From Eledone cirrhosa (taxonomy: Eukaryota), in assembly GCA_964016885.1 (NCBI GenBank), contig OZ024742.1, forward strand, positions 332,568,001-332,632,000: DNA of 64,000 nt, written 5' to 3'. Within the stretch, counting starts at the first letter, position 1; every line of letters begins with the position of its first letter. Both the position numbers and the translations under genes were made by a program. Below the pieces are notes generated by a model that was not told the DNA's origin, did not search any database, and worked only from the letters and a program-made list of their open reading frames with translations. Shown here one piece after another: positions 2,027 to 61,928 of the stretch.

Positions 2027-3971
2027 TGAATAAGGGTATAATAATTATTTGTAATATCAGGCATGTTGTGAAAGATATCGTTATATATCGCTGATTTCCT
2101 AGAAATCCGCCTCTAAATCGATAGTTTCCAAAGTATTTCACTATCAAGAACCGCTTTCATTTAAATGATATTTAATCACCGACACCCCATAGGACTTGCT
2201 CTGCTCTCAAATTGTTATAGAGTGATAATAACAATGAAATGAGAAATGTGCTTATACTTAGAGAAACCAGGTGTCTAATCGTATTTGTATCTTGTGTTTA
2301 TAACAACGTACTTGAAAATTTAAAGTCATACACGAATTCCGTGCAGTGAGATTGAGTCATGAATGCCTACGATTCGAAGGGAACCTGTTAACCACAGAGT
2401 CATGCTTATATCTATTCTTTTATCTCAGACGTTTTTGCTCCTCAAGATTAACTGATTGATGATGAATCTCCTCCGATGCATTGCAATCACATGTTACACC
2501 GATATCCTCTTTAATATTCTTCTATTTTTTTCTTTACTGCTACCACGGTGATTACTGTTCAGCAGAGTCAGTGTAGAGAGAAGTGCCTGCCTTCCTCCTC
2601 GCCTCTCATTATACATATTTCAGTCATCAAATATAGTGGGAAACATTTTGTTCAATTCTCTCAACCCCATACCAGCATTTTCGAACCAAATTTGGCCATG
2701 ATGTTCAAGCCGGTAGTAATGATTTTGTCTAATTCAGACATTTAATCTAGGATTATATTATTCAAAATTCACTATCCCTTTCAAGGAAAGTAGGATATGG
2801 TTTTAGAGAAAGTTCTCTGAAACAATAGTGAAAACTACTTTTAGGATGTCAAACGACAATGAAGAGTTTCCCCATTTTCTCCACTAATGTTTCCCTGCGG
2901 ACACCAGTTTTCAGAATCTAATTCTAAAAGAAATAATTTTCTGGGTACCCACCATTCTTAGGCTAAATAACATCGATACTGGTAGAAAATAGTTAATTTT
3001 ATGTGCATCCTGTTGAACGTCACATATTTAGAAGGGAATGTGACAAAGTGAAACAGTTTGATGGTTAAACGGTTTCTCAAGCATTGTGTGGCGGATACTG
3101 ACACAAAACGGCACCCTGCATCATTTTGTCTATTTTCAAAACAGAGCAAAAAACGTTTATATGATTCTATATTTAAGGTAATATTCATACAAAAATGTGA
3201 TAATTTACGTTTTAGTAATGTGTCGAATTTCATCGCAATCATAACCAAAATACAACAATCATTTTATGACCCTTTTTAAAGAAACCCCTGTTCCAACACA
3301 AACATAATACAAATTTATGTTACAACCGAACCCCATTTACAACCAGCATCTTCATGTAATCGTCGCATTTTACGTAGTAAAAAACATGACTCAATTAAAA
3401 TCTTGTTGAAAATCAAAACCTAGGGTAGATAGATATTTGTTGTTAAGTTGGTTTCTTTAATTATAATGACACTATCGTTAAATAGTCGAACAAATGCCTG
3501 GTTAAAATTTTTCTGACCTTTTACACTCTGAGTTCAAATGAGGTCGTCGTCAACTTTGCCTTTCATAAAGTAATAGTCACATACTGAGCTCTGTATTTAT
3601 GTCAAAATTATCATAGAAACCATTAAATATAATTTCAAGCAGACTTTTTACGTTCTGAGTTCAAATCTCGTCGATGTCAGGCTTTCTTTTATAGAATTTT
3701 AGCGTCAATATTACTGAACTAAATGTCTCACTAGGGCATAAATTATGGCACCCATTCATGTTGTGAGTTCGAAACTCATGCAGGGACAGAAGCTGTACTA
3801 CAAACCTGCTTTGTCAAAAAAATAAATTATAACTATTTTACAGCACGTGCAAATGGAATTGCACACGTGTACATATTCACACACACTACACAAATACATA
3901 TACAAATACACATACATATTATACATATTCACACACAAAAATGAATGAACATATATATATATATACACTAT

Positions 3972-4268
3972 ATTAATAATTGGAAACTATATTTATAAAA
4001 CAATATTTATTTTATTATATATATTTCAAGGGCAACCAAGGTAAATTATGGTGCGCTTTCATCAGATAAAATACAGATTTGTTTTATATATAAATATTGA
4101 CATACCCGGGAAAACGACAACCTTAAAAATAAATATGGTTTTATAAATATAGTTTCCATTTATTAATATATTGTGTATTTACTCCACTAATCTGTTGAGT
4201 GCTTTATATCAGTTATAACAATGTTTAAACTTGTTGAATCCCAACAAATTAAATATAACCTCTGCACA
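3972..4268. mobile_element. Non-coding PLE terminal-repeat (pLTR) fragment with partial inversion; same family as 57561-57936
   Basis: tggaaactatatttataaaac...ttttataaatatagtttcca inverted pair, homologous tail ctgttgagtgctttatatcagttataa, (TA)n on both sides. Confidence 0.75.
4008..4073 (-). ncRNA. Type-I hammerhead ribozyme motif (intact core)
   Basis: Minus strand reads UAUUUUAU-CUGAUGA-AAG...CUU-GAAA-UAUAUA-UA-AUAAAAUA. Stem I is 8 bp, stem III is palindromic, cleavage triplet AUA. Confidence 0.85.
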
Positions 4269-4291
4269 TATATATATATATATATATATAT

Positions 4292-4480
4292 AGGAAAAGG
4301 TATGACCCCGACGGCAGAGCTCTAGCCGTTTCTACGGCTATTTCAGTCCAGAAATAGCCGTAGAAACTGCTTGAGCTCTGCCGTCGGGGTCATACCTTTT
4401 GCTATTACCCACTCTACTACCCTAAGTATTAAGTACTCTGGTGCGTTATGGTCCATCTGGTTCCTTACCACAATTCCTTC

Positions 4481-5375: not shown

Positions 5376-5450
5376 ACATATCCTGTAATAAAATAATAAA
5401 TACTACAGACAGTAGACACAAGTAAATTTAATGAAATCTTATTCCGCTTA

Positions 5451-7454
<2,004 letters not shown>

Positions 7455-10405: not shown

Positions 10406-10508
10406 AAGGAAATGTGGTAAGGAATCAGATGGACCATAACGCACCAAAGTACTCAATACATAGGGTAGTAGAGTGTGTAATAGGAACGAGTAGGACCCCG
10501 ACGTTCCT
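10402..10508 (-). mobile_element. Family A tail fragment
   Basis: aagaaggaaatgtggtaaggaatcagatggaccataacgcacc...ggaccccgac matches the reverse complement of the 47350-47448 tail. Confidence 0.75.
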
Positions 10509-10509
10509 A

Positions 10510-10540
<31 letters not shown>

Positions 10541-14796: not shown

Positions 14797-14870
<74 letters not shown>

Positions 14871-14876
<6 letters not shown>

Positions 14877-15050
14877 TGTATGACACCTACGGGAGAGCTC
14901 AAGCCGCTTCGACGACTATTTCGGGACTAAATTATAATTTTTAGACAGGTAAATAAAAACTTTTTTATTTACCAGCCTAAAAATTCTAATTTAGTCCAGA
15001 TATACCCGTCAAAACGGATTGAGCTCTGCAGTAGGTCTCATATATTTTCC
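14871..15050. mobile_element. Family A palindrome with longer central stem
   Basis: ggaaaatgtatgac...gagctc...ggactaaatt / aatttagtcc...gagctc...catatattttcc. Confidence 0.78.
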
Positions 15051-15790: not shown

Positions 15791-15796
<6 letters not shown>

Positions 15797-16162
15797 TAAT
15801 AAAAATAATGAATAAAAACAAAGAAACAGTTCCTTATATTAAAAAATTCATCTTTTTACGATCGTTTCTAGGATATGTATGTGTGTGTTGGTATGTATAT
15901 CATATAGATCTATGTAAAAGTTATGATATACATACCAACACACACATATATATCCTAGAAACGATCGTAAAAAGAGGAATTTTTTAATATAAGGGACTGT
16001 TTCTTTGTTTTTATTCATTTTTTTATTAATTTATCTTGACTCTGTTTTCCTGTGTTTTTCATCGAAAAAATGTTGAATACATCTTCTCTTTTCATGATAT
16101 TTGGATTACATTGAGTTCTTCATAGGGATTGGACACTACCGTATATTTTGGTAGATTTATCT

Positions 16163-16164
<2 letters not shown>
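15791..16164 (+). mobile_element. Truncated, fold-back pLTR of the 24.8-32.1 kb PLE family
   Basis: Palindrome 15791-16034 centred near tatagatctatg. Tail ...ttggacactaccgta...ggtagatttatctac matches 32056-32091. Confidence 0.85.
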
Positions 16165-17019: not shown

Positions 17020-17229
17020 ATGATAATAATGGAGCTGCGGCGTTGCAAATGGGTTACATATGAAAAAGTTTGTCCTTCATCAGTGATCTTCCAACCATCA
17101 TAGGCATTTCATCGCTTTAAAGACCATATTCCTCCGGTTGGTGCGAGCAACGGCTAAAAAAAGTCGTTGGGACACGTAAATAAAAGGGGACGCGAGGGTA
17201 AACAAACAAAATGGTTTAAGCAACAGAAA
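17020..17229 (-). mobile_element. Family B non-coding element fragment (homologous to 54709-55622)
   Basis: gtccttcatcagtga...aagtcgttgggacacgtaaataaaaggg matches the reverse complement of the 55410-55620 region. Confidence 0.8.
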
Positions 17230-19310: not shown

Positions 19311-19641
19311 AAAGAAAAGTTCGGTCTACATCGCTGAATACAATAAATGTAATCTGAGTTTTTCGAATATTAATAATAACATTCGTTTCGTTTGCAATTT
19401 TGCAAACAAGCCTCAATTTTATAGCTATGTCAGGAGACACTTCATTCTTGCTCTTATGTTGGCATGCGAACAGAACTGCAGGCACTAATGTTTCTGGGTA
19501 TCACCCTTCATCAGTACAGCTCGCTGTTCACCTGCCAAACTGTCATTCTCCTGACATGGCTATAAAATTGAGGCTTGTTTGCAAAATAGCAAACGAATCG
19601 AATGTTATTATTAATATTCGAAAAATTCTGATTACATTTAT
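19311..19641 (-). mobile_element. Non-coding element with ~95-bp inverted arms enclosing an HHR
   Basis: Arms 19344-19436 and 19537-19641, with (TA)n flanks. Confidence 0.8.
19474..19522 (-). ncRNA. Hammerhead ribozyme motif, U16.1->C
   Basis: Minus strand reads GCUGUA-CUGAUGA-A-GGGU gau ACCC-A-GAAA-CAUUAGUG-CC-UGCAGU. Confidence 0.7.
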
Positions 19642-24516: not shown

Positions 24517-24710
24517 TAACGAAAGAATTGTGGTAAGGAACCAGATGGACCATAACGCCCAGTATACTAAATACTTAGGGTAGTAGAGTGGGTAATAGGA
24601 AAAAGTATGACCCCGACGGCAGAGCTCAAGCTGTTTTGACGGCTATTTCTGGACTCGAGAAATAGCCATCGAAACGGCTTGAGTTCCGCCGTCGGGGTCA
24701 TACTTGTTCC
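24517..24710 (-). mobile_element. Family A palindrome plus tail
   Basis: ggaaaaagtatgaccccgacggcagagctc...gccgtcggggtcatacttgttcc. Confidence 0.8.
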
Positions 24711-24755
24711 TATATATATATATATAGGAAAAAGTATGAATACTACTACTAGTAC

Positions 24756-24814
<59 letters not shown>

Positions 24815-24859
24815 TAAACAAATAATGAATAAACAATTCCTTATATTAAACAAAAAAAG

Positions 24860-25014
24860 TTCATTATTTAACGATCGTTTCTAGGATATATATGTGTTAG
24901 AATTGGTATGCATATTCAACAGATCTATGTACAAAATTATACAAAATTATACAAATTATCAAGATTAAATATACATACCAAACACATATATACGCCGTCT
25001 TCAGAAATAATGAA
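24860..25014 (-). ncRNA. HHR with extended stem II (inverted copy of 31749-31903)
   Basis: Reverse complement of the 31749-31903 motif. Confidence 0.8.
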
Positions 25015-25831
25015 GTATATTTATTGATAATAACAACAATTCAAAATTTCAGTTCAAAATTGACCAATGAAAACACAAAGGGTTAAATGCAGTTCGGTGT
25101 GTGTATATACATGTAAAACCCTTACACATATTTTACAAAAATGTATGTATAATTTGTATACGCATACTAAAAGGATGGATGCAAATACAAAATTTCAAGG
25201 TTAATGTCTCTGTAAGCTTACAATGCGCAGATAAGATGCGCATTGATACTTATGAAGTCAAGTATATAAATATATTTTTTCATACTCACACATATCAGTA
25301 CAATCACACATACACGCGCGTATATGCATAAATATACACATAACCACGAACATACAAACACACACACACACCCCCACTCACATTTATATATGTGGATATA
25401 AAATCATAAGCACATGGATATTAATTCACTCACATAAAACACTGGCACACACATTTTTAGATCAAGATACAGAAATTAGGTGGGAGGGGGGGGGAGGGGT
25501 CAGTATTCAACTGTCTGAGCAGACTGCCTAATATAAATGTATCTATAAATTAAGAAAAATAAAAAAATAAAACAATAAAATATAATAAATATAATATAAT
25601 ATACATACACATACAGATATATACACATACATACATGTACACACACATAGAAATATTTACGCATACACACATACACACATACATATACAGTCATACACAC
25701 ACATACACCTACACGAACATACACATACACATATATAAAGATATATATATACACACACACACACGCAACACATACACACATACACATATATATAAAAAAT
25801 AAATAATAAAGATATATACATATATATATAT

Positions 25832-25870
<39 letters not shown>

Positions 25871-25949
25871 CACACACATACATCTAAATATACATACACA
25901 TACATACATACATACATGTACATACATGTACATACATATACGTACATCG

Positions 25950-25988
<39 letters not shown>

Positions 25989-26266
25989 TAGACATATAGA
26001 TACATACACACACAACTTACATACACACATATATATATATACATGTATATTCATACATAGAATTAGATATATAATCATACATACATATGCACTTACTTAT
26101 ACTCATATATACAAATACATACGCATCCATATATGCGTATATACATAAAAAACCACTACAACCTCACCTAACTCAGACATACAAATAAAAATGATAATAA
26201 AAAGGCATATGTATATACATACACACACGCATTAATAGAGATATATATATACACACATACATACAC

Positions 26267-26299
<33 letters not shown>

Positions 26300-26581
26300 T
26301 ATATATATATATACACACACATACACTCATACATATATATATATATATATATACACATAGATATCCACACACTCATACCACCATAAATACACATACAAAC
26401 ACCCACATATACATATATATACACACGTATATATATATATATATATATACACACACATAAAAAACAGACATGCACATATATATATATTTTTTTACACTTA
26501 TATATACACATATTATATACACATACACAACCTCACTTATACACACATACACATAAGTTATATTATAATAATAAAAATATT

Positions 26582-28303
26582 AGGTGTAAATCTTCTGCTT
26601 CTTTCCTACAATTTGATATAGATAATTACTATTCTTCTATATCACCTATACTCCTGAACAAAGCATTGATATTTGCTAAAAATAGATCTAACTTAACTTT
26701 GGATGACATTAACATTATTACACATGCTAGACTAACACTTATTGAATTTCAGAATGAATACTGGACCAGAAACACATACAGTAATCTTTTTGATATTACT
26801 ATGGGTTCAAGCGATTCCGCCCAAATTACTGATCTTGTGGGCCTCTTTCTCCTTTTCAACATAAATGCCTCTTTTCCCCACCTCAAAGGTGGTTTATATC
26901 GTGATGACTGTCTTCTTCTTTCTAACAACCTTAGCCTTTCAGAAATCGAAAAAAACAAAAAACATATTAGAACTTTCCTTAAAGACTATTATAATCATAA
27001 TATTACTTTTGAAAAAACAAGTAAAGTAGTAAATTTCCTAGATATAACTTTAGATTTAGCTACGGGTATCTACCAACCTTACCATAAACCTAACCAAAAC
27101 TTACATTACATACACTCACAATCTAATCACCCTAAATCTATCCTTAAAAACCTTGCATATAATATATCACTTAGAATTTCTAACCTTTCTTCTAACCAAG
27201 ATGTATTTGATAAAAATGCGACCTTCTATAACGAAGCTCTAGATAGAAGTGGCCACAAAAATAGATTAGAGTATATACCTTCTACTAAAAATACTGAAAG
27301 CATACAACATAATATTACCAACAAACACCAAATGAAAAGTACACACCTAAATGCCACCCACACTATACCCCAAAATACTAAATCTTCTAATATAAAGTAT
27401 AGTAACTCTCAAAAAACTACTCATCATACAACTATAATAAATATTAATAATAAAACTCCTAATAAAAAGGATAAAACACCTAAATCTACAAATATAACTA
27501 AAAATAGTTGTGGTGAGATCATTAACATTAATCCTCCTAGTAAAAATCACGATACAACCTATAAAAATAATAAAAATAATAAACAACATAGAAACCGTAA
27601 TAGACGGGTTACTTGGTATAATGCTCCTTTTAATTTACAAGTTAAGGATAATATTGCTAAAAAATTTTTTTATATCCTTGAGAAAAACTTCCCGCCAAAC
27701 CACAAATACCATCAAATCTTAAATAGGTCTACAGTTAAATTCTCATACTCTACAACAAATAACATAAAACAAAATATAAGTGCATATAATGCATATAAAT
27801 GTAAGAAAACCATAAGTATACCACCAGTACATCAAATTAACCATAATATCTCCTCAAATACAGAATTAACGAAAGGATGTAACTGTAGAAACAAAGCAAA
27901 CTGCCCATTAAAAGGGAATTGTCTTGTTAACAACATAGTCTATAAATGTAATGTTAAAACTAAAGATTCTATTTGCTCATATATAGGAGCTACCTCTAAC
28001 AATTTTAAGACAAGGTTTAATACCCACAAGCATAGTTTTAAAAATGCCGCACTGGCTAATACAACATCTCTAGCAGAAAAAATCAATAGTTATAAAAATA
28101 AGAATATAAAATATGATTTGACCTGGAGTGTGCTCAAAAGAGCCACCCCTTATCAAAATAATAGAAATGAATGTAGATTATGTTCCCAAGAACTATTTGA
28201 AATAATGAAGTCTAAGGATATCTTATTAAATAAACGACAGGAATTAATTATATCGTGTAATCATAAACTAAAAAAAACATTTAAATATTATAAACCTAAT
28301 TAA
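26582..28303 (+). CDS. PLE reverse transcriptase-GIY-YIG endonuclease ORF (N-terminally truncated by the inversion)
   Basis: Frame open from 26582: FDIDNYYSSI, FDITMGSSDSAQITDLVG, GGLYRDD, VNFLDITLDL, linker CNCRNKANC (CxCx5C), IVYKC...SYIGAT..FKTRFNTH, CRLC...LNKRQE...CNH. Confidence 0.9.
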   Translation, partial: RCKSSASFLQFDIDNYYSSISPILLNKALIFAKNRSNLTLDDINIITHARLTLIEFQNEYWTRNTYSNLFDITMGSSDSAQITDLVGLFLLFNINASFPHLKGGLYRDDCLLLSNNLSLSEIEKNKKHIRTFLKDYYNHNITFEKTSKVVNFLDITLDLATGIYQPYHKPNQNLHYIHSQSNHPKSILKNLAYNISLRISNLSSNQDVFDKNATFYNEALDRSGHKNRLEYIPSTKNTESIQHNITNKHQMKSTHLNATHTIPQNTKSSNIKYSNSQKTTHHTTIININNKTPNKKDKTPKSTNITKNSCGEIININPPSKNHDTTYKNNKNNKQHRNRNRRVTWYNAPFNLQVKDNIAKKFFYILEKNFPPNHKYHQILNRSTVKFSYSTTNNIKQNISAYNAYKCKKTISIPPVHQINHNISSNTELTKGCNCRNKANCPLKGNCLVNNIVYKCNVKTKDSICSYIGATSNNFKTRFNTHKHSFKNAALANTTSLAEKINSYKNKNIKYDLTWSVLKRATPYQNNRNECRLCSQELFEIMKSKDILLNKRQELIISCNHKLKKTFKYYKPN

Positions 28304-28826
28304 TAACATTATTTTAGAAATTAATTTAATTTAAATGTTAGTTAACCTATAAATTTAATTTAATTAATATTTTATTACAGATGAGAATATAAAATATTAT
28401 GTAATCATAAATTGTGAAAAACCTTTAAATATTACTAATATATACTTAGTAATTTAATTTATAGATTAATTTTAATTTATTTAAACCTTTTATTATAATT
28501 CTTTTACAGATAAAATATAACAAAATAATATCGTGTATCCAATGACAGAGAAATAATTTTTAGTATTATAGACCTAATTAATATACATTTTAGAAATATA
28601 TTTATTATTTGGTTTTAGTTTTAATCAACCTAAAAATTTTAATTTTAATTTGCTTAAAATTAGTATCCTTATACAGACGAATTGCAGAATGTCATGTAAT
28701 CATAGAATGGGATGTGTTTTGGATATATACCTAGTTAATATATTCTATGCAATTTTTTGAAAAAGATATGTATATGTATATGTGTATGTGTATGTGTGTG
28801 TGTGTATGTATATGTGTATGTATGTA

Positions 28827-28869
<43 letters not shown>

Positions 28870-30002
28870 ATATATATGTATATATGTATGTGTATGTATA
28901 TGTATATGTATGCGTATTAATTTTGATTTCTATTTGCATATAATTATATTATGCTATTGATGAAATACAATATCTGCTTTATGTATTGTATACCTAATTA
29001 ACATATACTATTGAAATAAATATATAATTTTTAATTTAGTTAACATATAATTTATATTCTACTACCGATGTAATACTTTATTTTATTTTTATTTGTGTTT
29101 TTTTTTTTTTTTTTTTTTTCCCTATTACTAAATTCATTTCCTAATATTGATACCATAACGTTATTAACTTTAATTTAGTTATACTGTAATTAATAATCTA
29201 CTACTGTTTAACTTCAAAATTCTGCTTCAAATATTATAAACCTAACTAATTTACACCTTAGAAATCAATATGTTGACTATCTTTGGTTTAGTTAACATAT
29301 GATTAATGGTATACTTATTTATTTTGAGATGCATAGATTTTGCCTTAGTTCTTGTTTGTTGTATTTCCTAACACTGAAAATATGTAAGAACATACATTGG
29401 ATAAAAATACGGAAAATATTCTATGTCTCTTGAAACATATATTTACTTTGATCCCCTTCTCCAAACCCCCCCCTTTCCCCCATACTATTATCATCTGTAT
29501 TTGTAAGCGTCTATGTATGAATATATATGTAGGTAGGTGTCTATATAGGTTTGGGTATTTATATCTAAATATAAAAATACATATATGCGCATGCAAATAT
29601 GAATGTAAGATTGCGTGTGTATATATGAGTGTGTATATGTATGTATATATGTGTATATATGCATTATATATGTATGTGTATGTGAATGTGTGTACGTATA
29701 TGTGTATGTATGTGTATATATGTGTATATATGTGTATGCATGTATATATAGGAATATATATATGTATATATATATGTATATGTATATGCGTGTGTATGTA
29801 TGTGTGTGTATGTGTGTTGTATATATATGTATGTCTCTCTATTTATATGTTTATCTTCGTATCTATGTGATATATGTGTGTGTGTGTGCATGTATGCATA
29901 TGTATGTGTTTATGTGTATATGTGTGTGTGTGTGTATATATGTGTGTGTGCACACACACACATATATATATGTGAGTGTGTATATGTGTCTGTGTATATG
30001 TA

Positions 30003-30060
<58 letters not shown>

Positions 30061-30146
30061 TGTCTATGTGTGAATATATGTCTATATTCGTATGTGTGTA
30101 TTTATGTATGTATATGTTTATATGTATGTATGTATATGTATGTATG

Positions 30147-30184
<38 letters not shown>

Positions 30185-30472
30185 TATATTATTCTTTATT
30201 ATTATAATATAACTTATGTGTATGTGTGTATAAGTGAGGTTGTGTATGTGTATATAATATGTGTATATATAAGTGTAAAAAAATATATATATATGTGCAT
30301 GTCTGTTTTTTATGTGTGTGTATATATATATATATATATATACGTGTGTATATATATGTATATGTGGGTGTTTGTATGTGTATTTATGGTGGTATGAGTG
30401 TGTGGATATCTATGTGTATATATATATATATATATATATGTATGAGTGTATGTGTGTGTATATATATATATA

Positions 30473-30503
<31 letters not shown>

Positions 30504-30781
30504 GTGTATGTATGTGTGTATATATATATCTCTATTAATGCGTGTGTGTATGTATATACATATGCCTTTTTATTATCATTTTTATTTGTATGTCTGAGTT
30601 AGGTGAGGTTGTAGTGGTTTTTTATGTATATACGCATATATGGATGCGTATGTATTTGTATATATGAGTATAAGTAAGTGCATATGTATGTATGATTATA
30701 TATCTAATTCTATGTATGAATATACATGTATATATATATATGTGTGTATGTAAGTTGTGTGTGTATGTATCTATATGTCTA

Positions 30782-30822
<41 letters not shown>

Positions 30823-31748
30823 CGATGTACGCATATGTATGTACATGTATGTACATGTATGTATGTATGTATGTGTATGTATATTTAGATGTATGTGTGT
30901 GTATATGTATATATATATATATATATATGTATGTGTATATATATATATGTATATATCTTTATTATTTATTTTTTATATATATGTGTATGTGTGTATGTGT
31001 TGCGTGTGTGTGTGTGTATATATATATCTTTATATATGTGTATGTGTATGTTCGTGTAGGTGTATGTGTGTGTATGACTGTATATGTATGTGTGTATGTG
31101 TGTATGCGTAAATATTTCTATGTGTGTGTACATGTATGTATGTGTATATATCTGTATGTGTATGTATATTATATTATATTTATTATATTTTATTGTTTTA
31201 TTTTTTTATTTTTCTTAATTTATAGATACATTTATATTAGGCAGTCTGCTCAGACAGTTGAATACTGACCCCTCCCCCCCCCTCCCACCTAATTTCTGTA
31301 TCTTGATCTAAAAATGTGTGTGCCAGTGTTTTATGTGAGTGAATTAATATCCATGTGCTTTTGATTTTATATCCACATATATAAATGTGAGTGGGGGTGT
31401 GTGTGTGTTTGTATGTTCGTGGTTATGTGTATATTTATGCATATACGCGCGTGTATGTGTGATTGTACTGATATGTGTGAGTATGAAAAAATATATTTAT
31501 ATACTTGACTTCATAAGTATCAATGCGCATCTTATCTGCGCATTGTAAGCTTACAGAGACATTAACCTTGAAATTTTGTATTTGCATCCATCCTTTTAGT
31601 ATGCGTATACAAATTATACATACATTTTTGTAAAATATGTGTAAGGGTTTTACATGTATATACACACACCGAACTGCATTTAACCCTTTGTGTTTTCATT
31701 GGTCAATTTTGAACTGAAATTTTGAATTGTTGTTATCAATAAATATAC

Positions 31749-31903
31749 TTCATTATTTCTGAAGACGGCGTATATATGTGTTTGGTATGTATATTTAATC
31801 TTGATAATTTGTATAATTTTGTATAATTTTGTACATAGATCTGTTGAATATGCATACCAATTCTAACACATATATATCCTAGAAACGATCGTTAAATAAT
31901 GAA
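31749..31903 (+). ncRNA. Type-I HHR with ~115-nt stem II
   Basis: UUCAUUAUUU-CUGAAGA-[long hairpin]-GAAA-CGAUCG-UU-AAAUAAUGAA. Stem I is 10 bp, stem III is the palindrome ACGAUCGU, GUU site at 31891-31893. Confidence 0.85.
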
Positions 31904-32142
31904 CTTTTTTTGTTTAATATAAGGAATTGTTTATTCATTATTTGTTTAATATTTTATCTTGACTCTGTATACCGTTTATCTTTCACCGAAAGTGGTTTTT
32001 CATTACATCTCTTCTTTCCATGATATCCGGAATACATTGAGTTCTTCATACGGATTGGACACTACCGTAAACTCTTGGTAGATTTATCTACATATATATA
32101 TATATATATATATATATGAAAAAGTATGAATACTACTACTAC

Positions 32143-32173
<31 letters not shown>

Positions 32174-32265
32174 ATATATATACGTTATTCCGGGTTGAAT
32201 CGGAGGTAACCTCAGTAAGGAAGGTACTCAATACATTGCAGAGTATAACAGTTTTAATATAGATG

Positions 32266-32316
32266 AGATTCTACAGGACTAGAACTGTTTCATTCTTTAG
32301 AAATCATCAGGAATCT
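32266..32316 (-). ncRNA. HHR (inverted copy of 34559-34609)
   Basis: Reverse complement of the 34559-34609 motif. Confidence 0.8.
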
Positions 32317-32333
32317 GGGTATCAAAAAATATT

Positions 32334-33500
32334 ACCACCATTACCGATGCTGAGCAAGTTGTTATCCTCCACGCCCGTAAGACCTTTCTATACCACGATG
32401 GATCTTACTGGATCAACAAGAAATTTCAGACCCCATTTGACGTTAGCATGGGAGCGAGTGACTCGGCTGAAATTAGCGACCTTGTGGGCTTGTACATCCT
32501 ACATCCCCTGAAGAACCTCTTTACCAGCCTAACCGGAGGGTTATACCGAGACGACGGACTCTTGGCCCTGCATAAGGTTAACCCCAGAACCACCGATTGG
32601 TTTCGGAAAAACTTAAGCTCATTCTTCTCTAATCTAGGATTTAGTATAACTATAGAATCTAATTTGACTAGGGCCAACTTCTTAGATGTCACTCTCGACC
32701 TAAATACTTCCCTCTATTACCCGTACCACAAACTTAACGAGTCCCTTAGATATATTAATGTTAATTCAAACCACCCCCAAAACATCACTGATAACCTAGT
32801 AAAAAGCGTCTCTATTAGAATATTTGGCCTCTCCGCCAACAAAGATATTTTTAACGCATCTGCCTCCTACTACAATGACGCCCTCGCCCGCAGCGGATTT
32901 AATGAAAAGATAACATACCTAGAAACCACCGCAAGATTGCAGAGGAGGAATAGACATAGGCAGATTAGCTGGTACAACCCTCCCTTCAATAGAGAGGTCT
33001 CTACACTGATAGCTCGGATTTTCTTCACTTTGCTGAAATTACACTTCCACATACAGCATAGGCACCACACCATCTTTAATAAGAACACAATAAGACTCTC
33101 CTACTCCACCACACCTAACCTAGCTAGGAATATAGCCAACCACAATTCTAAAAAATTAAATAGGCCAACCACCTCCGAACCCAATCCCCGGACTGGGGCT
33201 CTGTGTAAATGCCTAAATAAGGAAGCATGCCCACTTGAAAACAAATGATATCGTATACAAATGCGATGTCATCTCAGGCACCGATGATTGCAAAAAAACT
33301 TACATCGGCATGACCTCCAACATCTTTAAGACTCGTTGGTATGCCCGTACCCACTCCTTCAGAAGACCAGACAAATCAAACCAGACAACATTCGCCTCCT
33401 ATGTTTGGGACCTCAAAAGGAACTCCACCCCCTTCACGCTTAAATGGAAAATACTCCAGAAAGCGCGCTCTTACAACGGAAGACACAAGGGCTGCCTCCT
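32334..33500 (+). pseudogene. PLE RT-GIY-YIG, frameshifted at ~33246 and lacking the EN C-terminus
   Basis: FDVSMGASDSAEISDLVG, GGLYRDDG, ANFLDVTLDL, CKCLNKEACPL, then in another frame IVYKC...TYIGMTSNIFKTRW. Confidence 0.9.
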
Positions 33501-33765
33501 ATTGGCCCCTATACCTCCTTCCCACCCTACACCCACCCCTCCTCAACCTGAAATACGGCCACTAGGGTTATGTGAGTACCTCTTACCTATCTGCATTTTC
33601 TGCCTGTAGAGCTGTTTTTATATGCCTGTGTATATGCGTATATTTATTGAGTACTTATTTATTTGTATGTGTATATATTTGTGTGTATGTGTGTATATGT
33701 ATGTGTATGTATGTGTATGTGTATGTATGTGTATGTGTACACATGTATGCGTGTATATAAATATA

Positions 33766-33806
<41 letters not shown>

Positions 33807-33896
33807 ATGTGTATATATACATATGTGTGTGTATGTGTGTATATATATATATATATATATGTATGTGTATAAATATATGTGTGTATGTGTGTGGAA

Positions 33897-33988
<92 letters not shown>

Positions 33989-34527
33989 GCGTGTGTGTGG
34001 GGGGGTATTTGTGTGTATGTGTTTGTGTGGTTCTCTCTCTGTGTGTGTGTATATATGTGTATATGTGTATATGTGTGTGTGTTTATAGGTGCGCGCGAGT
34101 GTGTGAGTGTGTTTGTGAATGTGTCTGTTGATTTTTGGCATATAGTTGAATAGTTTAAGAGAAATTTGAAGATAATTGTATGATATGCACTCAATATTTT
34201 GAATTTGTCTACAGAATTCTCTACACCTTTGTCACTTAGTAGAACCTTAAAGAATTTAGCTTTTAAAGAATCTCCCCTTCCTTTAAATCTATCTACCATG
34301 ACTGACCCCCACTGATCTTATAGACACCTGTTAGCTTAAGAGAAACATAATAATAAGGAGTGGCACCCCATCCTGAACCTGTTTATAGAATTCTTTCAGC
34401 CTTTGTTACTCTAAAAATAAAAATAAACTATAGCTTTGTAGAATTAGCTTTTAATGAATTCCCTTTTCTATCAACCAATGACCTACACCCATCCCACTCC
34501 CCACCCTCTCCTACCACTTGTAGAGAC

Positions 34528-34536
34528 CTATAAATA
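34528..34536 (+). promoter_or_regulatory. Possible pLTR TATA box
   Basis: CTATAAATA about 30 nt upstream of the HHR, in otherwise C-rich sequence. Confidence 0.35.
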
Positions 34537-34558
34537 CCATACTTATTTTTTGATACCC

Positions 34559-34609
34559 AGATTCCTGATGATTTCTAAAGAATGAAACAGTTCTAGTCCT
34601 GTAGAATCT
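34559..34609 (+). ncRNA. Type-I HHR (intact core)
   Basis: AGAUUC-CUGAUGA-U-UUC uaaa GAA-U-GAAA-CAG uucuaguc CUG-UA-GAAUCU, with a GUA site. Confidence 0.88.
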
Positions 34610-34623
34610 CATCTATATTAAAA

Positions 34624-36254: not shown

Positions 36255-36689
<435 letters not shown>

Positions 36690-36762: not shown

Positions 36763-37703
36763 TAAGGTAATGAATTCTTTTACAATGGAATCAGCTCGAA
36801 TGAGGAAAAATATCCCCTGAGCAGTGTATAAATTAATATGTATGTGATGAAACACAGATACCAACACATCTGTATATATATTGCAAAAGAAAAATTTAGC
36901 CAGATTGAAGTATACTAATTATTATACTACAGTTTGTCCATATCGAGTTAAAATAATAAATCAACGGAGACGAACTGTATTGCCAAAAGGCCGTGATGTT
37001 TAGACACATTTAAATTTCAAAATCACGGCCTTTTGGCAATACAGTTCGTCTCCGTTGATTTATTATTTTAACTCGATATGGACAAACTGTAGTATAATAA
37101 TTAGTATACTTCAATCTGGCTAAATTTTTCTTTTGCAATATATATACAGATGTGTTGGTATCTGTGTTTCATCACATACATATTAATTTATACACTGCTC
37201 AGGGGATATTTTTCCTCATTCGAGCTGATTCCATTGTAAAAGAATTCATTACCTTATTAATTTTAACTGCTCCTAGTTTGAGCTGCAAACCGTCTCATAT
37301 ATACGACTGTTATTTCTAGCAGTACGGTTATGAGACTAGTTAGATACTGTAAAGCCATGTGCGTCACACAGTCTTTTAAATTATTTAGAAGTGAAGCATA
37401 TCAATTTGTCTCTGGATGTTTACTGAGGAGAGCGGGACATGATATTCCTACACTTATTTAACTCAAAACATATTTCGATTTTAAAGTTTAAACTTATCTA
37501 CGGAACAGGTTTGATTTTGAAATTTAAATGTGTCTAAACATCACGGCCTTTTGGCAATACAGTTCGTCTCCGTTGATTTATTATTTTAACTCGATATGGA
37601 CAAACTGTAGTATAATAATTAGTATACTTCAATCTGGCTAAATTTTTCTCTTGCAATATATATACAGATGTGTTGGTATCTGTGTTTCATCACATACATA
37701 TTA

Positions 37704-38715: not shown

Positions 38716-39213
38716 TTTGTCTATTTCTCTCTTACTGCTTCCCCGTTCTCTCTGTTTCTCTCACCTTCTTTCGCCCCCTCTGTCAGTTACACTTTCTCTC
38801 GAATCAACGCTTCCTCGCCCTTCCACTCACTCACTCTCTGTTTCTCCCCTTCTCACTTCCTCCCGTTTGGCTAACAGTGGGCCTCTTCTTGCTTACATCT
38901 CACTCACGACAGACGTCTGTACCTTTCGCTCATGAAATCCACCCAGCTTATGCTGACCAGGACTACCATGTTGCTTGTTTATTTCCGTTCTTTGGTTTGC
39001 TTTTATCCTTCTATGTTGTTCACTTGTCCCCCTCGCTTTACGCGATTTACTTGTCCCAATAACTTTTTTTAGTTATTGCACGCACCAACTTCAGTTATCT
39101 GATTTTTAATGCGATGAAATACCAATGATGGTTGGAAAATCACTGACGAAGGACTATTTTTATCATATGTAACCTATGTGCAACCACGCAGTATTCTTCT
39201 TTCTTCTCATGTT

Positions 39214-39246: not shown

Positions 39247-39591
39247 GTGAGGTTTTTTTTACAAAATTAAAAATAACCGAGGTGTCCTACACGAGTGAAA
39301 GTATAAAGAAATAGAGATGAAATCGAAAATGCAACTGGAGTCTTATTTTTTTTTTAAATATATATATTTATTTGGTTCCTTTACCGGTTTCGCAGTTCTG
39401 CTTTTCAAAAGGTGAGTTGAGATGGAGGGTCTCTGGTTTTTCTCACAGATGTGAGAAAAACCAGAGACCCTCCATCTCAACTCACCTTTTGAAAAGCAGA
39501 AGAACTGCGAAACCAGTAAAGGAACCAAATAAATATATATATTTAAAAAAAAAATAAGACTCCAGTTGCATTTTCGATTTCATCTCTTTTT

Positions 39592-40910: not shown

Positions 40911-43900
40911 ACTTTGATAACTTTGATAGGTTTCGGCCAGTATTGGCCCAGGCCGTGTCTAACTTAATAGCACCACCAGGCGAGGTCTTACAAATCAGTG
41001 TTTGGGCACCGTGGCCCACTCGAGCGGAGAGTTATTGTTTATGGAGGCATATTCTGGTGTAGGAGGCTTATCCGGGATTTCTTGAAGGAATTTATCCAAA
41101 GACTTCTTGAACTTGATGGGGTTTGTCTCTGCTTTGATGTGTTTTGGTGTAATGTTAAAGAGTGTAGGGCCAATTGAGGTGAAATAATTGTGCCGTAGTG
41201 TTGTTACGTGATGCGAGTGAGATTTTTGTCATGGGAGGATAGCACGGGGCCCAAGTTTTGGGTGTACACTAAAGGTGATGCCAACATCATTTGGGCAAAG
41301 CTGATGGAATATTTTCCACATCATACAGATAATGTAGCGCTCACGGCAACGTTGGAGAGAATAAATTTTGAGCTTTTCTAATCGACTCCAATAGTCAAGG
41401 CCTGTTATGACATCTATCTTTTTTCTAATAGACCTTTGGGATGCTTCAACTTTCATGATACTTTGTGTCGTGTGGAGTGACCAGAGTGGACAACAGTATT
41501 CAAGGTGGGGTCGGGCAAAAGTGGAGAAGAGAAGGATAACAGTGTGGATATTTCTCGACTGGAAAGTTCTGAGAATCCAGGAACACATTCTGCGGGCCAT
41601 ATCAAATTTGCTGTTTATATGAGTGGCCCAGCTTATGTTGTTGTCCACAATTACTCCCAGGTCTCTGATGTTATTGGATGCCACTAGAGTTTCATCCGAA
41701 GGAAGAGAGTATGGTAGTTTCAGGGCATCCTTTTTTCCAAAGTGGATTAATTCAAATTTATCCTCATTCAACAGCATATTATTCATTTCAGCTCATTGGA
41801 TAACAGCCAGTAGGTCTGACTGAAGGCAAGTCCAGTCACCCACCTCATTGATGACCCTTTGGAGCTTGGAATCATCTGCGAAGATTCTGGTGTTGCTGAG
41901 CTTGATGATGTCAGTAATGTCATTAATGTAGATGATGAAAAGAAGTGGGCCCAACACAGTACCTTGTGGGACGCCACTGCTGACTTTGGCAGGGCTTGAT
42001 TTTACTCCTTCGACTACAACATGCTGGGTTCTGTCCGTCAGAAACATTTGATCCGGTGTAGTAACCTTCCAGAGACAACAACATTGGATAGTTTTTTCAG
42101 TATAATCTTATGATCAACCCTGTCGAAGGCCTTACTGAAATCAAGGTAGAGGTCATCAGTGTTGGAGCCCTCTCCCAAGGCTCTCAAAACATCGTCAAAG
42201 TGATGCAGGATCTGCGTTAGGCAGTCCCTTCCGTTACGGAACCCATGTTGGTTGGAGTTCAGCAGGCCGTTGTTTTCAAGGAAGTGGGTTATTCGTGATC
42301 TCACCACCCTCTCAAATACTTTGATAATATGAGAGGTGAGTGAGATCGGGCGGTAGTTCACTGCAAGGGACGTATTTCCCTTTTTGAAGACTGGGACAAT
42401 GGACTGGGACAGAAAGTTTTCAGGAATATAACCAGTGTCCAGTGAGTTCCTCCACAGATTAGCAAGAGAAGATGCAAGTTGGTGTCGACACACCTTCAGG
42501 ACACAAGCAGGGAACCTGTTGGGGCCTACTGCTGAATTGTGTTTAATTTCGTTTATTGCCCCTAAGACATCAGGGGCGCCAAACGTTATGTCTGATATAG
42601 TGTGTTGGGCATTAACATCACTGATACGGCCCAGATCGGCTATATTAGGATTGCTGAAAACAGAGCTGCATTGTTTCTGCAGTATCTCGCCCATGGTTTT
42701 GGCATTGTCTTGGAGTGTGCCATTTTGATCAACTAGGTGCCCAACAGTGGAGACGGTGACCTTATGGTTTTTAGCAAATGAAAAGAACACTTTGAGGTTG
42801 ATTTTGATTTTCTCAATGGCCGACCTCTCTTCAGCTATTCCCTGGTTACTGATGATGGTCATCATGCATTGCTGGAGGTTATATTTTTTTGACTCAAGCA
42901 GGGTGATAGCCATTGAATGTGTGTGTTGCTGTTGGCAGTATTTTAGTGTGTTAATTTTTTTGTTTGTTCTTTATATTTTTCTGATAATTCTTTTTCTGTT
43001 TTGCGGGATACTGCATTTGTTTTTGTTCACAGGTTTTGGTGGGGTGTGTTTTCTACATATATTTGTGACAGTGTCTACAAAGATCTGCTAAGATGTTTTG
43101 ATGTTGGTGGAAGTGTGGGCGTGTGTAAATTACCAGTTGACATGTGATAGTTCGTTCATAATTGCATCCCAGTTGGCATTGTAGAGATCCATGTTATCAA
43201 ATGTGTGGGCTGGAAAGAGGACCCTGGGATTAGCTTTCGGCTGGTGGATTTTCAGGTTACATAGAGCCATGTCATGGTCTGAGAGAAGGGTTTTATCCAC
43301 TGTAATATTATGTATAGTATTAGTGTGGTTACCAAACACTAGATCCAGAATGTTCTTTTGATGCCTCGTTGGTGCAAGGACAAGTTGGGACAAGAAAAAC
43401 TCATTCATGAAGTCAAGAAATGACTCGACAGCCTCTTTGTCAGTGGTTGAGGCTGTGGAGCCTGGTTTCAAGCTACATGTAGATCAATCGACACATGGTA
43501 GATTAAAGTGTCACATCAAAAGTATGTTGCTAGAATGGCACTGTTTAATAAAGCATTTAATACTGTTGAAGCATTCTTTGAAGCAGAATATGGGTGTTTG
43601 TGGTTGCCTATAGAGACCAACTAATGTCAGGTTATTGGCTTTATTGTGCACAGTGACTGATTCACAGTATCCATTAGAGAATGTTGTGTTACCATCTGCC
43701 GTAAAGGAATCATGCAGGAAAATGGCAGTTCCACCCTTCCTTCTGCCAACACGATCCGCGCGGATGGTTGTGACATTTCTCACTCTTATTTCGGCCTCCC
43801 AGTGGGAGTTGTCACGGTGGGTCTCAGTAAGACTGAAGAAGGGGATGTGAAATGGATGGTTACCACCCCAATCCTAAATGAATTGGATCATCCATTTCTG

Positions 43901-47256: not shown

Positions 47257-47447
47257 GGAACGAGTAGGAACCCGACGGCTGAGCTCAAGCCGTTTCGACG
47301 GCTAATTCTGAGTCCAGAATTAGCCGTCGAAACGGCTTGAGCTCAGCCGTCGGGGTCCTATTCGTTCCTATTACCCACTCTACTACCCTAAGTATTGCGT
47401 ACTTTGGTGCGTTATGGTCCACCTGGTTCCTTACCACATTTCCTTCG

Positions 47448-54708: not shown

Positions 54709-55615
54709 TTTACGTGTCCCAACGACTTTTTTTAGCCGTTGTTCGCACCAACCTGAGGCATATGGCCCTTAAAGCGATGAAATGCCTGGGACGGTTGGAG
54801 GGTCACTGATGAAGGACTCACTTTTTCATATGCACCACCATTTGCAACGGGCAGCCATCATTATTATCATATTTACACATAATTTTTCTTCTGCTGCCAT
54901 CCGTCCGTTTCGTCCTTTGTACCTTTACCCTTTCTCGTTCTTTGTACCTTTTACTCTTTCTAGCAGTCTCTCTCTCTGTTAGCCTCCTCCTCAACTTTCA
55001 CTCACTCATTCTCTGTCACTACCTCTCCTCCTCCTCCTCCTTCAAGTTTGACCTGTGTGAAATTCTTTTCTCGCGCGTCCTGGCCAAGCTGGTATGGAAT
55101 TTTTTTTCTCTCTCTCTTTCGTCTGCGACTTAACAAAACTTATGTTTACCGAATTCGTAGACCAGACCCCTTCTTCTTCTTCTTCTTCTTCTTCTTCTTC
55201 TTCTTCTTCTTCTTCTTCTTCTTCTTCTTCTTCTTCTTCTTCTTCTTCTTCTTCTTCTTCTTCTTCTTCTTCTTCTTTCCCCCCCGTTAGACTTGGGCGA
55301 AATTCCTTCCTTTCTCACATTTCAACCAGGTTTGATGGTCTTTTGTCTCTTGTTCACGATTTCACCGAGTTTATATTCATAGAGATCTGGGACTTGTCTA
55401 TTTCTTCTCACTTTCCGTTGCTTAAACCATTTTGTTTGTTAACCTAACGTCCCTTTTATTTACGTGTCCCAACGACTTTTTTTAGCCGTTGTTCGCACCA
55501 ACCTGAGGCATATGGCCCTTAAAGCGATGAAATGCCTGGGACGGTTGGAGGGTCACTGATGAAGGACTCACTTTTTCATATGCACCACCATTTGCAACGG
55601 GCAGCCATCATTATT

Positions 55616-56063: not shown

Positions 56064-56109
56064 ATAGCCTCAGAAACGGCTGACCTCTGCCGTCGGGGTC
56101 ATACTTTTT

Positions 56110-56111
<2 letters not shown>
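56064..56111 (+). mobile_element. Family A fragment
   Basis: atagcctcagaaacggctgacctctgccgtcggggtcatactttttcc. Confidence 0.7.
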
Positions 56112-56154
<43 letters not shown>

Positions 56155-57562: not shown

Positions 57563-57932
57563 GATATTAAACAAATGGAAACTATATTTATAAAACCATA
57601 TTTATTTCGTTATATATATTTCTGGGATATCATATTAAAAATATGGTATGCCTTCCTCAGACAAAATACAATACATAAGCTGTTTTATAAATAATTTTGA
57701 CATACATTTATAAAACAGCTTATGTAACTTATGTATTGTATTTTGTCTGAGGATGGCATACCATATTTTTAATATGATATCCCAGAAATATATATAACGA
57801 AATAAATATGGTTTTATAAATATAGTTTCCATTTGTTTAATATCGTAAACCTACTCCAGAAACTGTTGAGTGCTTTTATATCAGTTATAAAATATTTACT
57901 CGTTGTAACCCAACAATTTTAAATATAACTTT

Positions 57933-57936
<4 letters not shown>
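57561..57936 (+). mobile_element. Non-coding pLTR with fold-back inversion carrying mirror HHRs
   Basis: 57561-57678 is inverted at ~57728-57846. Confidence 0.85.
57739..57804 (+). ncRNA. Type-I HHR (intact); mirror copy at 57603-57668 (-)
   Basis: UAUUUUGU-CUGAGGA-UGG...CCA-GAAA-UAUAUA-UA-ACGAAAUA. Confidence 0.85.
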
Positions 57937-58001
<65 letters not shown>

Positions 58002-58003
<2 letters not shown>

Positions 58004-58081
58004 CGAAGGAAATGTGGTAAGGAACCAGAGAATTAGCCGTCGAAACGGCTTGAGCTCTGCCGTCAGGGTCATACTTGTTCC
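58002..58081. mobile_element. Rearranged family A fragment
   Basis: Inverted tail fused to gaattagccgtcgaaacggcttgagctctgccgtc. Confidence 0.7.
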
Positions 58082-58094
58082 TATATATATATGC

Positions 58095-59706
58095 ATATGT
58101 TTTGCCCCTGTCATATTAGCGGCAATAAACATAATCAAGCGCCAGTCACCAGTAGGGACCGATATGTTTCCTCCTAGAGAGTTGAAGAATTGCCGACCTC
58201 AACTTGCATGCCCACTTGCTTATCTTTGAGAAGCCCACTTGATGCAGGCTAATTCGCTGAACATTCCTGTCCCAGTCTCTCGTCCCTGCTTTCAAAAATG
58301 GGAACAAATCCCTTCCAATGAATTACCGTCTAATCTCACTCATTTCTCAAGCTATTTGTGAGGGTCATGAGATACCAAATAACTCACTTCCTTGAAATGA
58401 ACAATCTGCTGAACTCCAAACAGTATGTCTTTCATGATGGCAGCGACTGCCTGACACAGCTTCTGCATCACTTTGGTGACATCCTAAACGTTTATTGGAT
58501 GGCTCCAATACGGAAGTTATTTATCTCGATTTCAGCAAGTCCTTTGCAGGGCTGATTACAACACCCTGTTGAAGAAATATTAGCGGCGTATTAGATCTTT
58601 CCTAACAAATATATACCGGCATGATGTTGTCAAATGAATACGATGAAGCTTAGACAAAGTCAGTAGTAGTGTCCCATAATTCACTCTGTTCGGCCCATGT
58701 CTCTTAATTATTTACATAAACGACAATATAGGCGTCATCAAAACATAGCAACATAACATTTTTCGCTGATGATTCAAAGCTCTAGAAGGGCATTAAATGA
58801 GTCGGTGACCGGATATACTTTCAATCGGATCTGCTCGCTGTCATCCACATGGTCAACAGAAAAGAATATGGTAATAAATGAGATTATATTTGAATTAATT
58901 CACTTTAGAAAACAGGATGCATTGAAGTTACCATATTCTCTTCCAATATTCTGGCATCAAACAAAGCCAGAGACTTCGGATATTTATATACAATATAAGC
59001 TAGATTACTCCCATAAACAATAAAGTGGACTTGTCCTGTATGATGTGTTTCTGGATTCTCAGAACATTCAGCGCTAGAGAAATTCATACCATTATCCTAC
59101 TCTACGCTATTTTTATTCGATCCCACATTGAATAATGTACTCTGTGGTCTGCCCACACGAAACAAAGTATTATGAAAATTGTAGGATCCCATAGGTCAAT
59201 TACAAACAACGATAGGTGGTATGACAGGCCTTGGCTATTAGGGGTTGATTAGAAAAAACATACTCTACTTTCTCCAACGTTGCCATGTGCGCTACATTAT
59301 CTATGTGATGTGAGAAATATTCTATTATTATTGCACATATTATGTTGACATCACCTTAAAATCCACCCAAGGTTTGGTCATTTGCTCACTACAAAAATCA
59401 AACTTACATCTCATAGCAACGGAACGACACAACTACTTCACATCAACTTCTTCTCTCTTTAATATCATACTGAAATATATCAAGACAGAAACATATCCCA
59501 TAATATTCAAATGTTCCCTGGACAAATTCCTCAGAGAAATCCCGGTTAATCCCCCTACACCCGAGAACAAGGACTTTTTACTAGAATGAGCTACAGTATC
59601 CAGAAGTGACTAGGTCGTGAACCCATAATCTGAAAGACTTCACCCGATGATGCTGTTAAGTTAGACATGGCCTGGGCCACCACTGGACGAAACCTATCAA
59701 GTTATC
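58095..59706 (+). pseudogene. Older 5'-truncated copy of the 40.9-45 kb LINE family
   Basis: QITHFLEMNNLLNSKQYVF...DCLTQLLHHFGD, FELIHFRKQDALKLPYSLP, and the same 3' end gaaacctatcaagttatca. Confidence 0.85.
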
Positions 59707-59744
59707 ACCCCAATTTATATGTGTGTGTGTATGTGTGTGTGTGT

Positions 59745-61751: not shown

Positions 61752-61787
61752 TCTTCTGATGAAGGACTAGCGTCCGAAACGTTAAGA
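61752..61787 (+). ncRNA. Minimal type-I HHR
   Basis: UCUU-CUGAUGA-A-GGAC uagc GUCC-GAAA-CG-UU-AAGA, with palindromic ACGU stem III typical of PLE HHRs. Confidence 0.88.
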
Positions 61788-61928
61788 CCCTCTTCCTGCT
61801 ATATCAAGCGTTAACCTAATATATATCTCCATATACTGTACCGATTGTGTTGTTATTTCTGTTTACCTTATACACACACATGCACACACATGCACACACT
61901 CGCACGCACACACACACACGCACACACA

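Follow-up and report, generated by a model that had tools for sequence, protein, structure and literature searches.

A mirrored, core-less hammerhead fragment in Eledone cirrhosa and its placement on stem II of a related Penelope-like element

Between positions 15791 and 16164 of a 64,000-nucleotide stretch of the Eledone cirrhosa genome (the window), the DNA folds back on itself almost perfectly and carries, in mirror image, one half of a hammerhead ribozyme. Where on the structure of the ribozyme did one strand give way to the other, and how might such a mirror have been made? The first-pass annotation placed the axis of the palindrome in stem II of the hammerhead, and held that an intact parent ribozyme in the same window allowed the point of inversion to be located directly.

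The window is (TA)n-rich animal DNA, of which 13,089 of 64,000 bases were masked as alternating repeats. It includes two decayed copies, 69% alike and in opposite orientation, of a reverse transcriptase (RT) region that we take from its motifs to be LINE-like (40915-42970 and 58104-59707). There is also a host exon on the minus strand (5448-7454), the 3' part of which is the start of a sulfotransferase domain (PF00685, E 5e-06).

The fragment and its relative PLE-A

The fragment is 374 bases long and has (TA)n-type tracts on both sides; with such flanks, a target-site duplication is not discernible. It is best described against PLE-A, a 7.3-kb insert at ~24798-32091 in which an inverted arm is joined to a direct arm. 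The parts of the fragment are as follows.

15791-15921, minus strand: inverted tail-less arm including the native stem II loop, corresponding to PLE-A 31957 down to ~31826 and readable on to ~31771
15905-15921, minus strand: unpaired spacer of 17 nt, centre 15913 (PLE-A 31835), the loop in inverted-arm orientation
15922 to ~15956, no strand assigned: helix interval that would contain the strand switch, where plus and minus alignments both fit
15922-16034, plus strand: direct arm, mirroring 15791-15904
15958-15969, plus strand: hammerhead 3' half GAAA-CGATCG-TA, with its mirror copy at 15868-15857 on the minus strand
16035-16164, plus strand: unmirrored tail of 130 nt, corresponding to PLE-A 31958-32091, between the two element ends

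The two mirror arms differ at 4 of 114 columns, and the DNA of the fragment is predicted to fold into a near-perfect hairpin (z -27.9; none of 200 shuffles was as stable). On the plus strand, 15926-16164 aligns with PLE-A 31848-32091 at 77.7% over 251 columns (E 9e-51), the match ending at 32091. Both the palindrome and the homology to the 3' end of a Penelope-like element (PLE), as first proposed, are thereby borne out; judged by this alignment, the fragment is a 78% relative of the PLE-A 3' end and no direct copy of it. Its arms duplicate PLE-A 31844-31957. The left arm runs 64 nt beyond the predicted cut, to exactly 31957, and is followed by (TA)n; no upstream element sequence is left. All that remains of the ribozyme is, as had been noted, GAAA-CGAUCG-UA in mirrored form, starting at 15958 on the plus strand and at 15868 on the minus strand, with no CTGANGA between. 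Motif scans found CTGANGA on neither strand of the fragment, which is to say that it lacks the CUGANGA core of a type I hammerhead.

PLE-A retains what the fragment has lost. Its principal features are these.

~24807-26575, minus strand: inverted tail-less arm, corresponding to 31957 down to 30195 (99.2% over 779 aligned bases)
26576-32091, plus strand: direct arm, with a 5'-truncated RT-EN open reading frame (ORF; to 28303), a long 3' UTR, the ribozyme and the tail (31958-32091)
31750-31903, plus strand: predicted type I hammerhead, with a stem I of 10 bp, CTGAAGA at 31759-31765, a stem II region of 116 nt (31766-31881) and GAAA at 31882

The ORF at 26576-28300 contains YRDD and a C-terminal VYK..YIG region and has 344 relatives at E<=0.001. 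A Pfam search named no family for it, and the names RT and GIY-YIG-type endonuclease (EN) rest on motifs. Alignment of the relatives shows an invariant CxCX5C linker (C435-C437-C443), a CxxC (C533/C536) and a CxH (C561/H563), and the EN core is without an internal CCHH. Hydra-clade PLEs are described in PMC8557442 as having a CxCX5C linker, CxxC and CxH beside the EN, and no CCHH within the EN core. RWK and DKT motifs are present in most of eight aligned relatives; the corresponding N-terminal part is truncated in PLE-A. The element is inserted in (TA)n and carries a hammerhead in its terminal repeat. By the motifs of its ORF, PLE-A is assigned as a Hydra-clade EN+ Penelope-like element.

Two further peculiarities of PLE-A are recorded here. 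Between RT and linker, the ORF carries an in-frame insert of ~95 aa rich in N, K and T (27280-27590), which is missing or much shorter in the aligned relatives and recalls the N-rich inserts reported for rotifer Penelopes (PMC3846280, in part). The 3' UTR is ~3.8 kb long and contains long (TG/TA)n tracts in 28304-31175, copied into the inverted arm at 92-99% identity.

The sequence at 31750-31903 has CUGANGA and GAAA cores, helices I to III and an NUH triplet (here GUU); helix III is palindromic and the predicted cut falls after 31893. Its fold is well separated from shuffles (z -6.96; stem II alone, z -7.16), with a helix II of ~32 bp inside the 116-nt region. There is one extra base after position 9, and two extra bases precede GAAA. 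Self-cleavage is predicted from sequence and fold. A second full ribozyme lies in the inverted arm (25004-24870), the outer end of which merges with (TA)n. At the gathering score, Rfam gave 0 matches in the 64,000-nt window, short-stem motifs being missed too. The supposed intact parent thus survives in part. Its core letters are intact, 'intact' being limited to these letters given the GUU triplet, the two extra bases and the want of an Rfam match; it is a 78% relative, not the parent.

Public sequencing reads bear on variation in this hammerhead. In four joints, 84-86 nt between 31779-31781 and 31866-31868 are missing (8, 16, 38 and 12 reads, with 3-4 starts each), from which it follows that other copies retain the core and the base of the stem with a different top. 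Several other signals were set aside. An excess of read starts in run X22 at 31853 (plus, 846) versus 31855 (minus, 112) had been considered a sign of mirrored copies; it is explained by reads anchored at a restriction site. In run X1, contig depth rises 7.4-fold at 31733 (29,880 to 220,971), which was taken up as a sign of many short core-bearing copies and dropped because depth gives no copy number; the same reservation attaches to the rises at this position in runs X5 (1.9-fold) and X6 (1.5-fold). Three metagenome loci (L001-L003) were rejected as relatives, since they have only a 20-nt match in common, which was put down to chance. A pattern scan for relatives returned 0 in viral contigs and 0 in prokaryote genomes.

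Position of the symmetry centre and of the strand switch

One way to locate the axis is to count the flanking positions that pair about each candidate centre. The first-pass annotation had taken the motif 'tatagatctatg' (AGATCT) as axis; about its centre (15909.5) only 13 of 50 flanking positions pair, compared with 49 of 50 about 15913. By alignment, 15913 corresponds to PLE-A 31835, in the apical loop of the 116-nt stem II. The motif was therefore misidentified, and the mapping of the axis to apical stem II stands.

The orientation of the unpaired spacer is informative. Compared with the PLE-A loop on the minus strand it scores 28, a value reached by 1 of 5000 shuffles; on the plus strand it scores 16, reached by 600 of 5000. 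In addition, the minus strand of the fragment, read from 15952 to 15791, aligns to PLE-A 31771 to 31957 without a change of strand, the only gap being one of 27 nt at a tandem expansion of the PLE-A loop. Pairing of the fragment's arms ends where the native PLE-A helix ends (31844). The minus-strand match of the loop, taken with the unbroken alignment, means that the spacer is the native loop read through by the inverted arm, and not the point of inversion.

If the loop belongs to the inverted arm, then the change of strand should lie beyond it. We infer that it occurred within ~15922-15954, in a helix of ~30 bp beside the loop (PLE-A 5' strand ~31770-31797, paired with ~31847-31877). Since stem II by itself forms a hairpin, a switch anywhere in this helix yields a palindrome centred on the loop; it follows that the axis cannot place the breakpoint more finely. 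To place the inversion point on the structure, as had been proposed, was thus to overstate what the axis can tell: the loop is native and is kept whole on the inverted arm, and the switch is confined only to the helix. An exact switch point would call for the intact ribozyme of the donor subfamily, and the present reading assumes that the donor loop has the polarity of PLE-A's; read as it is from a 78% relative, the donor loop might be flipped.

Mirrored inserts elsewhere in the window

The window contains 15 palindromes. A motif scan found GAAA–helix III–UH facing outward in at least one arm of 10 of them and inward in 2, counts to be read with an expectation of 0.76 per single arm, a motif defined after the sequences had been viewed, and three hits that represent one family. 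Outward hits at 19343, 40020 and 62327 were left out because they are not mirrored at equivalent places. This leaves seven palindromes (4296, 15791, 24595, 36421, 39309, 47259 and 57571), and in six of these no CTGANGA lies between centre and GAAA. Motif scans of the window did not find an intact ribozyme for the other core-less families; for these, accordingly, a position inside stem II is inferred, and only 15791 can be placed directly.

Several of the palindromes belong to a second, short family.

4296-4476, 10406-10510, 14870-15047, 24525-24713, 47259-47443, 56065-56114 and 58001-58084: seven copies of the second short family, with a hammerhead 3' half

Members have a 5-bp helix III, GUC, a fixed internal end and a tail of ~75 nt. 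The CUGANGA core is present in 0 of 7 window copies; six of the seven reach past GAAA on its 5' side and break off in what is presumed to be stem II. In 4296, 24595 and 47259 the inverted arm ends at one common internal site, the partner arm continuing into the tail. Two copies have non-mirror joins: in 10406 a tail-primed arm is joined to a 9-nt internal-site arm, and in 58008 a short tail-primed arm is joined to an internal-site arm of 56 nt. Arms within a copy differ at 3, 6, 2 and 11 of 49 columns, as against 4-15 between copies, and subfamily letters occur on both arms of 47259; mirrors have thus been re-made more than once, or converted. Three copies share the same direct-arm start base and their centres differ; the decayed 47259-family copy 14874 is set apart by a much longer centre.

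Five inserts in the window join outside stem II. The join in PLE-A is at 30195, ~1.56 kb before the core. That in PLE-B is at 34544, 21 nt before the core. At 57571-57836 a whole short-stem ribozyme is mirrored, with the centre 43 nt before the core and a 13-nt spacer on the inverted arm. At 3958-4265 and 10406-10510 the joins are no more than a few bases from the predicted cut site; in the former the direct arm begins ~4 nt after it. Together 3958-4265 and 57571-57935 form one family with a complete hammerhead and a stem II of 31 nt. PLE-B itself (32189-34620) is a frameshifted second PLE with ~40% protein identity to PLE-A, and has a short-stem hammerhead at 34565, mirrored at 32310. It carries its tail on the inverted arm, PLE-A on the direct one. 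What had been called direct evidence is accordingly a single copy set on a 78% relative, in a window where five inserts join elsewhere; the alignments make of it a worked example and not a rule.

Other repeats were noted in passing. Tailed palindromes with mirrored GAAA-palindrome-UA halves occur at 36363-36689 and 39255-39591; common to both is a small apical hairpin ~55 nt before GAAA, on which the mirror is centred in 39309 but not in 36421. A near-perfect palindrome of 488 bp (36766-37253) is without an outward hammerhead half and has a partial copy nearby (37512-37701). A repeat family at 17041-17227, 39045-39201, 54719-54858 and 55414-55608 has a CTGATGA-type motif near one end, downstream of which scans found no GAAA. 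An isolated minimal hammerhead-like motif (CTGATGA, short stem II, GAAA-CG-TT) lies at 61756-61790; its fold is no better than shuffles.

A further junction comes from public raw reads. In run X22, among the 15 of 19 joints listed, the single opposite-strand joint connects 31831, in the stem II loop, to 31959, at the start of the tail; it is represented by 72 reads with 1 start and 25 letters on the short side, and reflects one locus. Because the reads begin at 31855 on the minus strand, we read it, with orientation judged from the length of the sides, as an inverted arm that ends in the loop and is joined to the tail alone. On this reading, the layout would be the non-overlapping one of L1 twin priming.

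Origin of the mirror and comparison with known systems

In both PLE-A and the fragment, 78% alike, the inverted arm begins at 31957 and the direct arm ends at 32091. The RT of Poseidon PAc, as described in PMC11167929, initiates in vitro at two sites bounding the tail, and cuts and extends both strands; by analogy, the shared ends would match two known PLE priming sites. Since the two copies share both ends and a PLE RT uses two sites in vitro, we consider it somewhat probable that cDNA was primed at the two sides of a cut in (TA)n and that the complementary strands of stem II joined the copies, giving a mirrored, core-less stub. The account starts from the arms, the tail, the ends at 31957 and 32091, the loop on the inverted arm and the loss of CUGANGA, as observed, and would supply priming, pairing and their order. 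One target end would prime at the internal site (31957); the cDNA begun there would copy first the 3' strand of stem II, then its loop, and continue into the 5' strand; the 3' terminus of this cDNA would next base-pair with a copied 3' strand, whether in the same molecule (snap-back) or in cDNA primed at 32091 (annealing); and fill-in and joining would leave a palindrome with a one-sided tail. Snap-back and annealing of two cDNAs give the same product and are indistinguishable from the fragment. Ribozyme cleavage would not be required, the hairpin serving as a built-in homology patch and perhaps as a pause site. Simple snap-back of a single tail-primed cDNA was rejected for this copy, as the loop would then sit on the tail-bearing arm; it fits the second family, in which the few unpaired centre bases belong to the tailed arm.

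Does the mirror call for stem II at all? Near-perfect short-spacer mirrors also occur without a hammerhead half (36766-37253), which means that fold-back geometry does not require it. Ordinary 5' truncation of a PLE followed by generic microhomology fold-back, with a join in stem II by virtue of its large share of the 3' end (116 of the 342 bases in 31750-32091), is unlikely, though its chance is appreciable: mirrors with 4-17-nt spacers are found in several families both within and outside ribozymes, the five inserts above join elsewhere, and inverted 5'-truncated partners are the PLE norm (PMC8557442, in part). It does not lead one to expect that arm pairing should end at the top of the native helix, that the independent joint in the reads (31831/31959) should end in the loop too, or that the second family should be core-less throughout, with six of seven copies ending in the presumed stem II. 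The direct-arm start base common to three of those copies, none of which has a core, would suit instead a fragment copied from an already palindromic, core-less, non-autonomous master, the product of one old event. To this we attach a small chance, given the differing centres, the much longer centre of 14874, the subfamily letters on both arms, and the presence of just one mirrored copy of the fragment's own family in the window.

An antisense transcript could have primed itself at the stem II hairpin, one end being trimmed later; self-priming of this kind has been proposed for the palindromic junctions of rotifer Penelopes (PMC3846280) and would yield a head-to-head palindrome with antisense loop polarity, as observed. 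We nonetheless judge it improbable for the fragment, because it leaves the non-mirror joins unexplained (PLE-A, PLE-B, 10406, 58008 and the 31831/31959 joint) and because an RT acting on sense RNA in vitro starts at sites that correspond to the tail ends (PMC11167929, in part). A long stem II makes a type I hammerhead a quasi-palindrome from the outset, and arms are more similar than copies; one might therefore entertain an event at the DNA level after insertion, either correction of the quasi-palindrome or conversion in a cruciform, with loss of the 5' core to overwriting, or else inversion of the loop by recombination between the arms. It is very improbable in view of a left arm that continues for 64 nt beyond the predicted cut, stops at exactly 31957 as does the PLE-A inverted arm, and abuts (TA)n with no upstream element sequence remaining. 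That inverted PLE structures disturb assemblies (PMC8557442, in part) brings to mind a fold-back artefact of assembly or library; arms that differ at 4 of 114 columns and end at biologically shared sites reduce this to a negligible chance.

Priming from both ends of the cut, with joining through stem II, is thus the reading we prefer for the fragment. A wider proposal is possible but speculative, and we think it unlikely to hold: in some Hydra-clade PLEs a stem II stretched to a hairpin of 30-55 bp would act at the cDNA level as a snap-back primer for the second strand, repeatedly spawning core-less palindromic mini-elements in several families. If so, such mini-elements may be mobile, and their transcripts would be long hairpin RNAs; the polarity of the loop with respect to the tail would show, copy by copy across a genome, from which target end each strand had been primed; and the origin of PLE inverted repeats would be testable from an assembly alone.

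In L1 twin priming, two primers at the two ends of the target give rise to an inverted 5' part, and the inverted and direct parts do not overlap. The fragment departs from this: its arms duplicate 31844-31957, so that an arm is duplicated rather than only inverted, and the priming sites are fixed. With animal non-LTR retrozymes (bioRxiv 10.64898/2026.07.22.740005; PMC7229834; both in part) it has in common that a type I hammerhead is surrounded by short, non-coding sequence derived from a PLE; retrozymes comprise at least two tandem units, each with a complete hammerhead, whereas the fragment is a single head-to-head, core-less unit, neither a head-to-tail tandem nor the bearer of a complete ribozyme.

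Minimal type I hammerheads have been described in the repeats of metazoan PLEs, with opposite-strand pairs 100-700 bp apart (PMC4209133, in part). The PLE-A hammerhead is of this type in its CUGANGA/GAAA core, the extra base after position 9 and the G-C at the base of stem II, and it has likewise a palindromic helix III, suited to cleavage as a dimer. It differs in the two extra bases before GAAA, the GUU triplet and above all in helix II, ~32 bp compared with the 6-8 bp called large in PMC4209133; the fragment differs further in having no core. Published descriptors allow a spacer of 7-17 nt, with half-cores noted at 35-50 nt (PMC8557442, in part). A stem II of 116 nt exceeds these spacers, and such hammerheads would be missed by them.

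The closest parallels are the insertions of EN+ PLEs. According to PMC8557442, PLEs ordinarily insert into (TA)n with a truncated partner in inverse orientation and a tail at one end only; for rotifer Penelopes, PMC3846280 reports palindromes where the inverted arm is joined and interprets them as self-priming. The fragment has the same inverted, 5'-truncated, head-to-head arm, a tail at one end, a palindrome at the junction and a simple-repeat, (TA)n target. The tail is longer, 130-134 nt here against 30-40, and the junction palindrome, unlike those in the two sources, is the ribozyme's own stem II, with a loop of readable polarity; the available text of PMC3846280 gives 0 hits for 'ribozyme' and 'hammerhead'. 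As in Poseidon PAc, two fixed element ends downstream of the hammerhead bound the tail, and ribozyme cleavage would not be required for insertion; Poseidon PAc is of another clade, and the sites here are 134 nt apart (PMC11167929, in part). In the literature outside subscription, together with part of the supplement of PMC8557442, we found no PLE inversion junction placed in a hammerhead stem II, and nothing on a stem II of this length or on a loop-orientation marker at PLE junctions.

The fragment is, then, a local twist on an already known PLE insertion structure. According to PMC8557442, the process by which PLEs form inverted arms is undefined, and the joining of these arms is left unexplained in PMC11167929, as far as the accessible parts of each go. 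A long asymmetric hairpin marks strand polarity, and each mirrored copy thereby records which arm was copied through the loop. Taken with two fixed priming ends, this polarity makes the models of self-priming, snap-back and two-cDNA annealing comparable on genomic copies.
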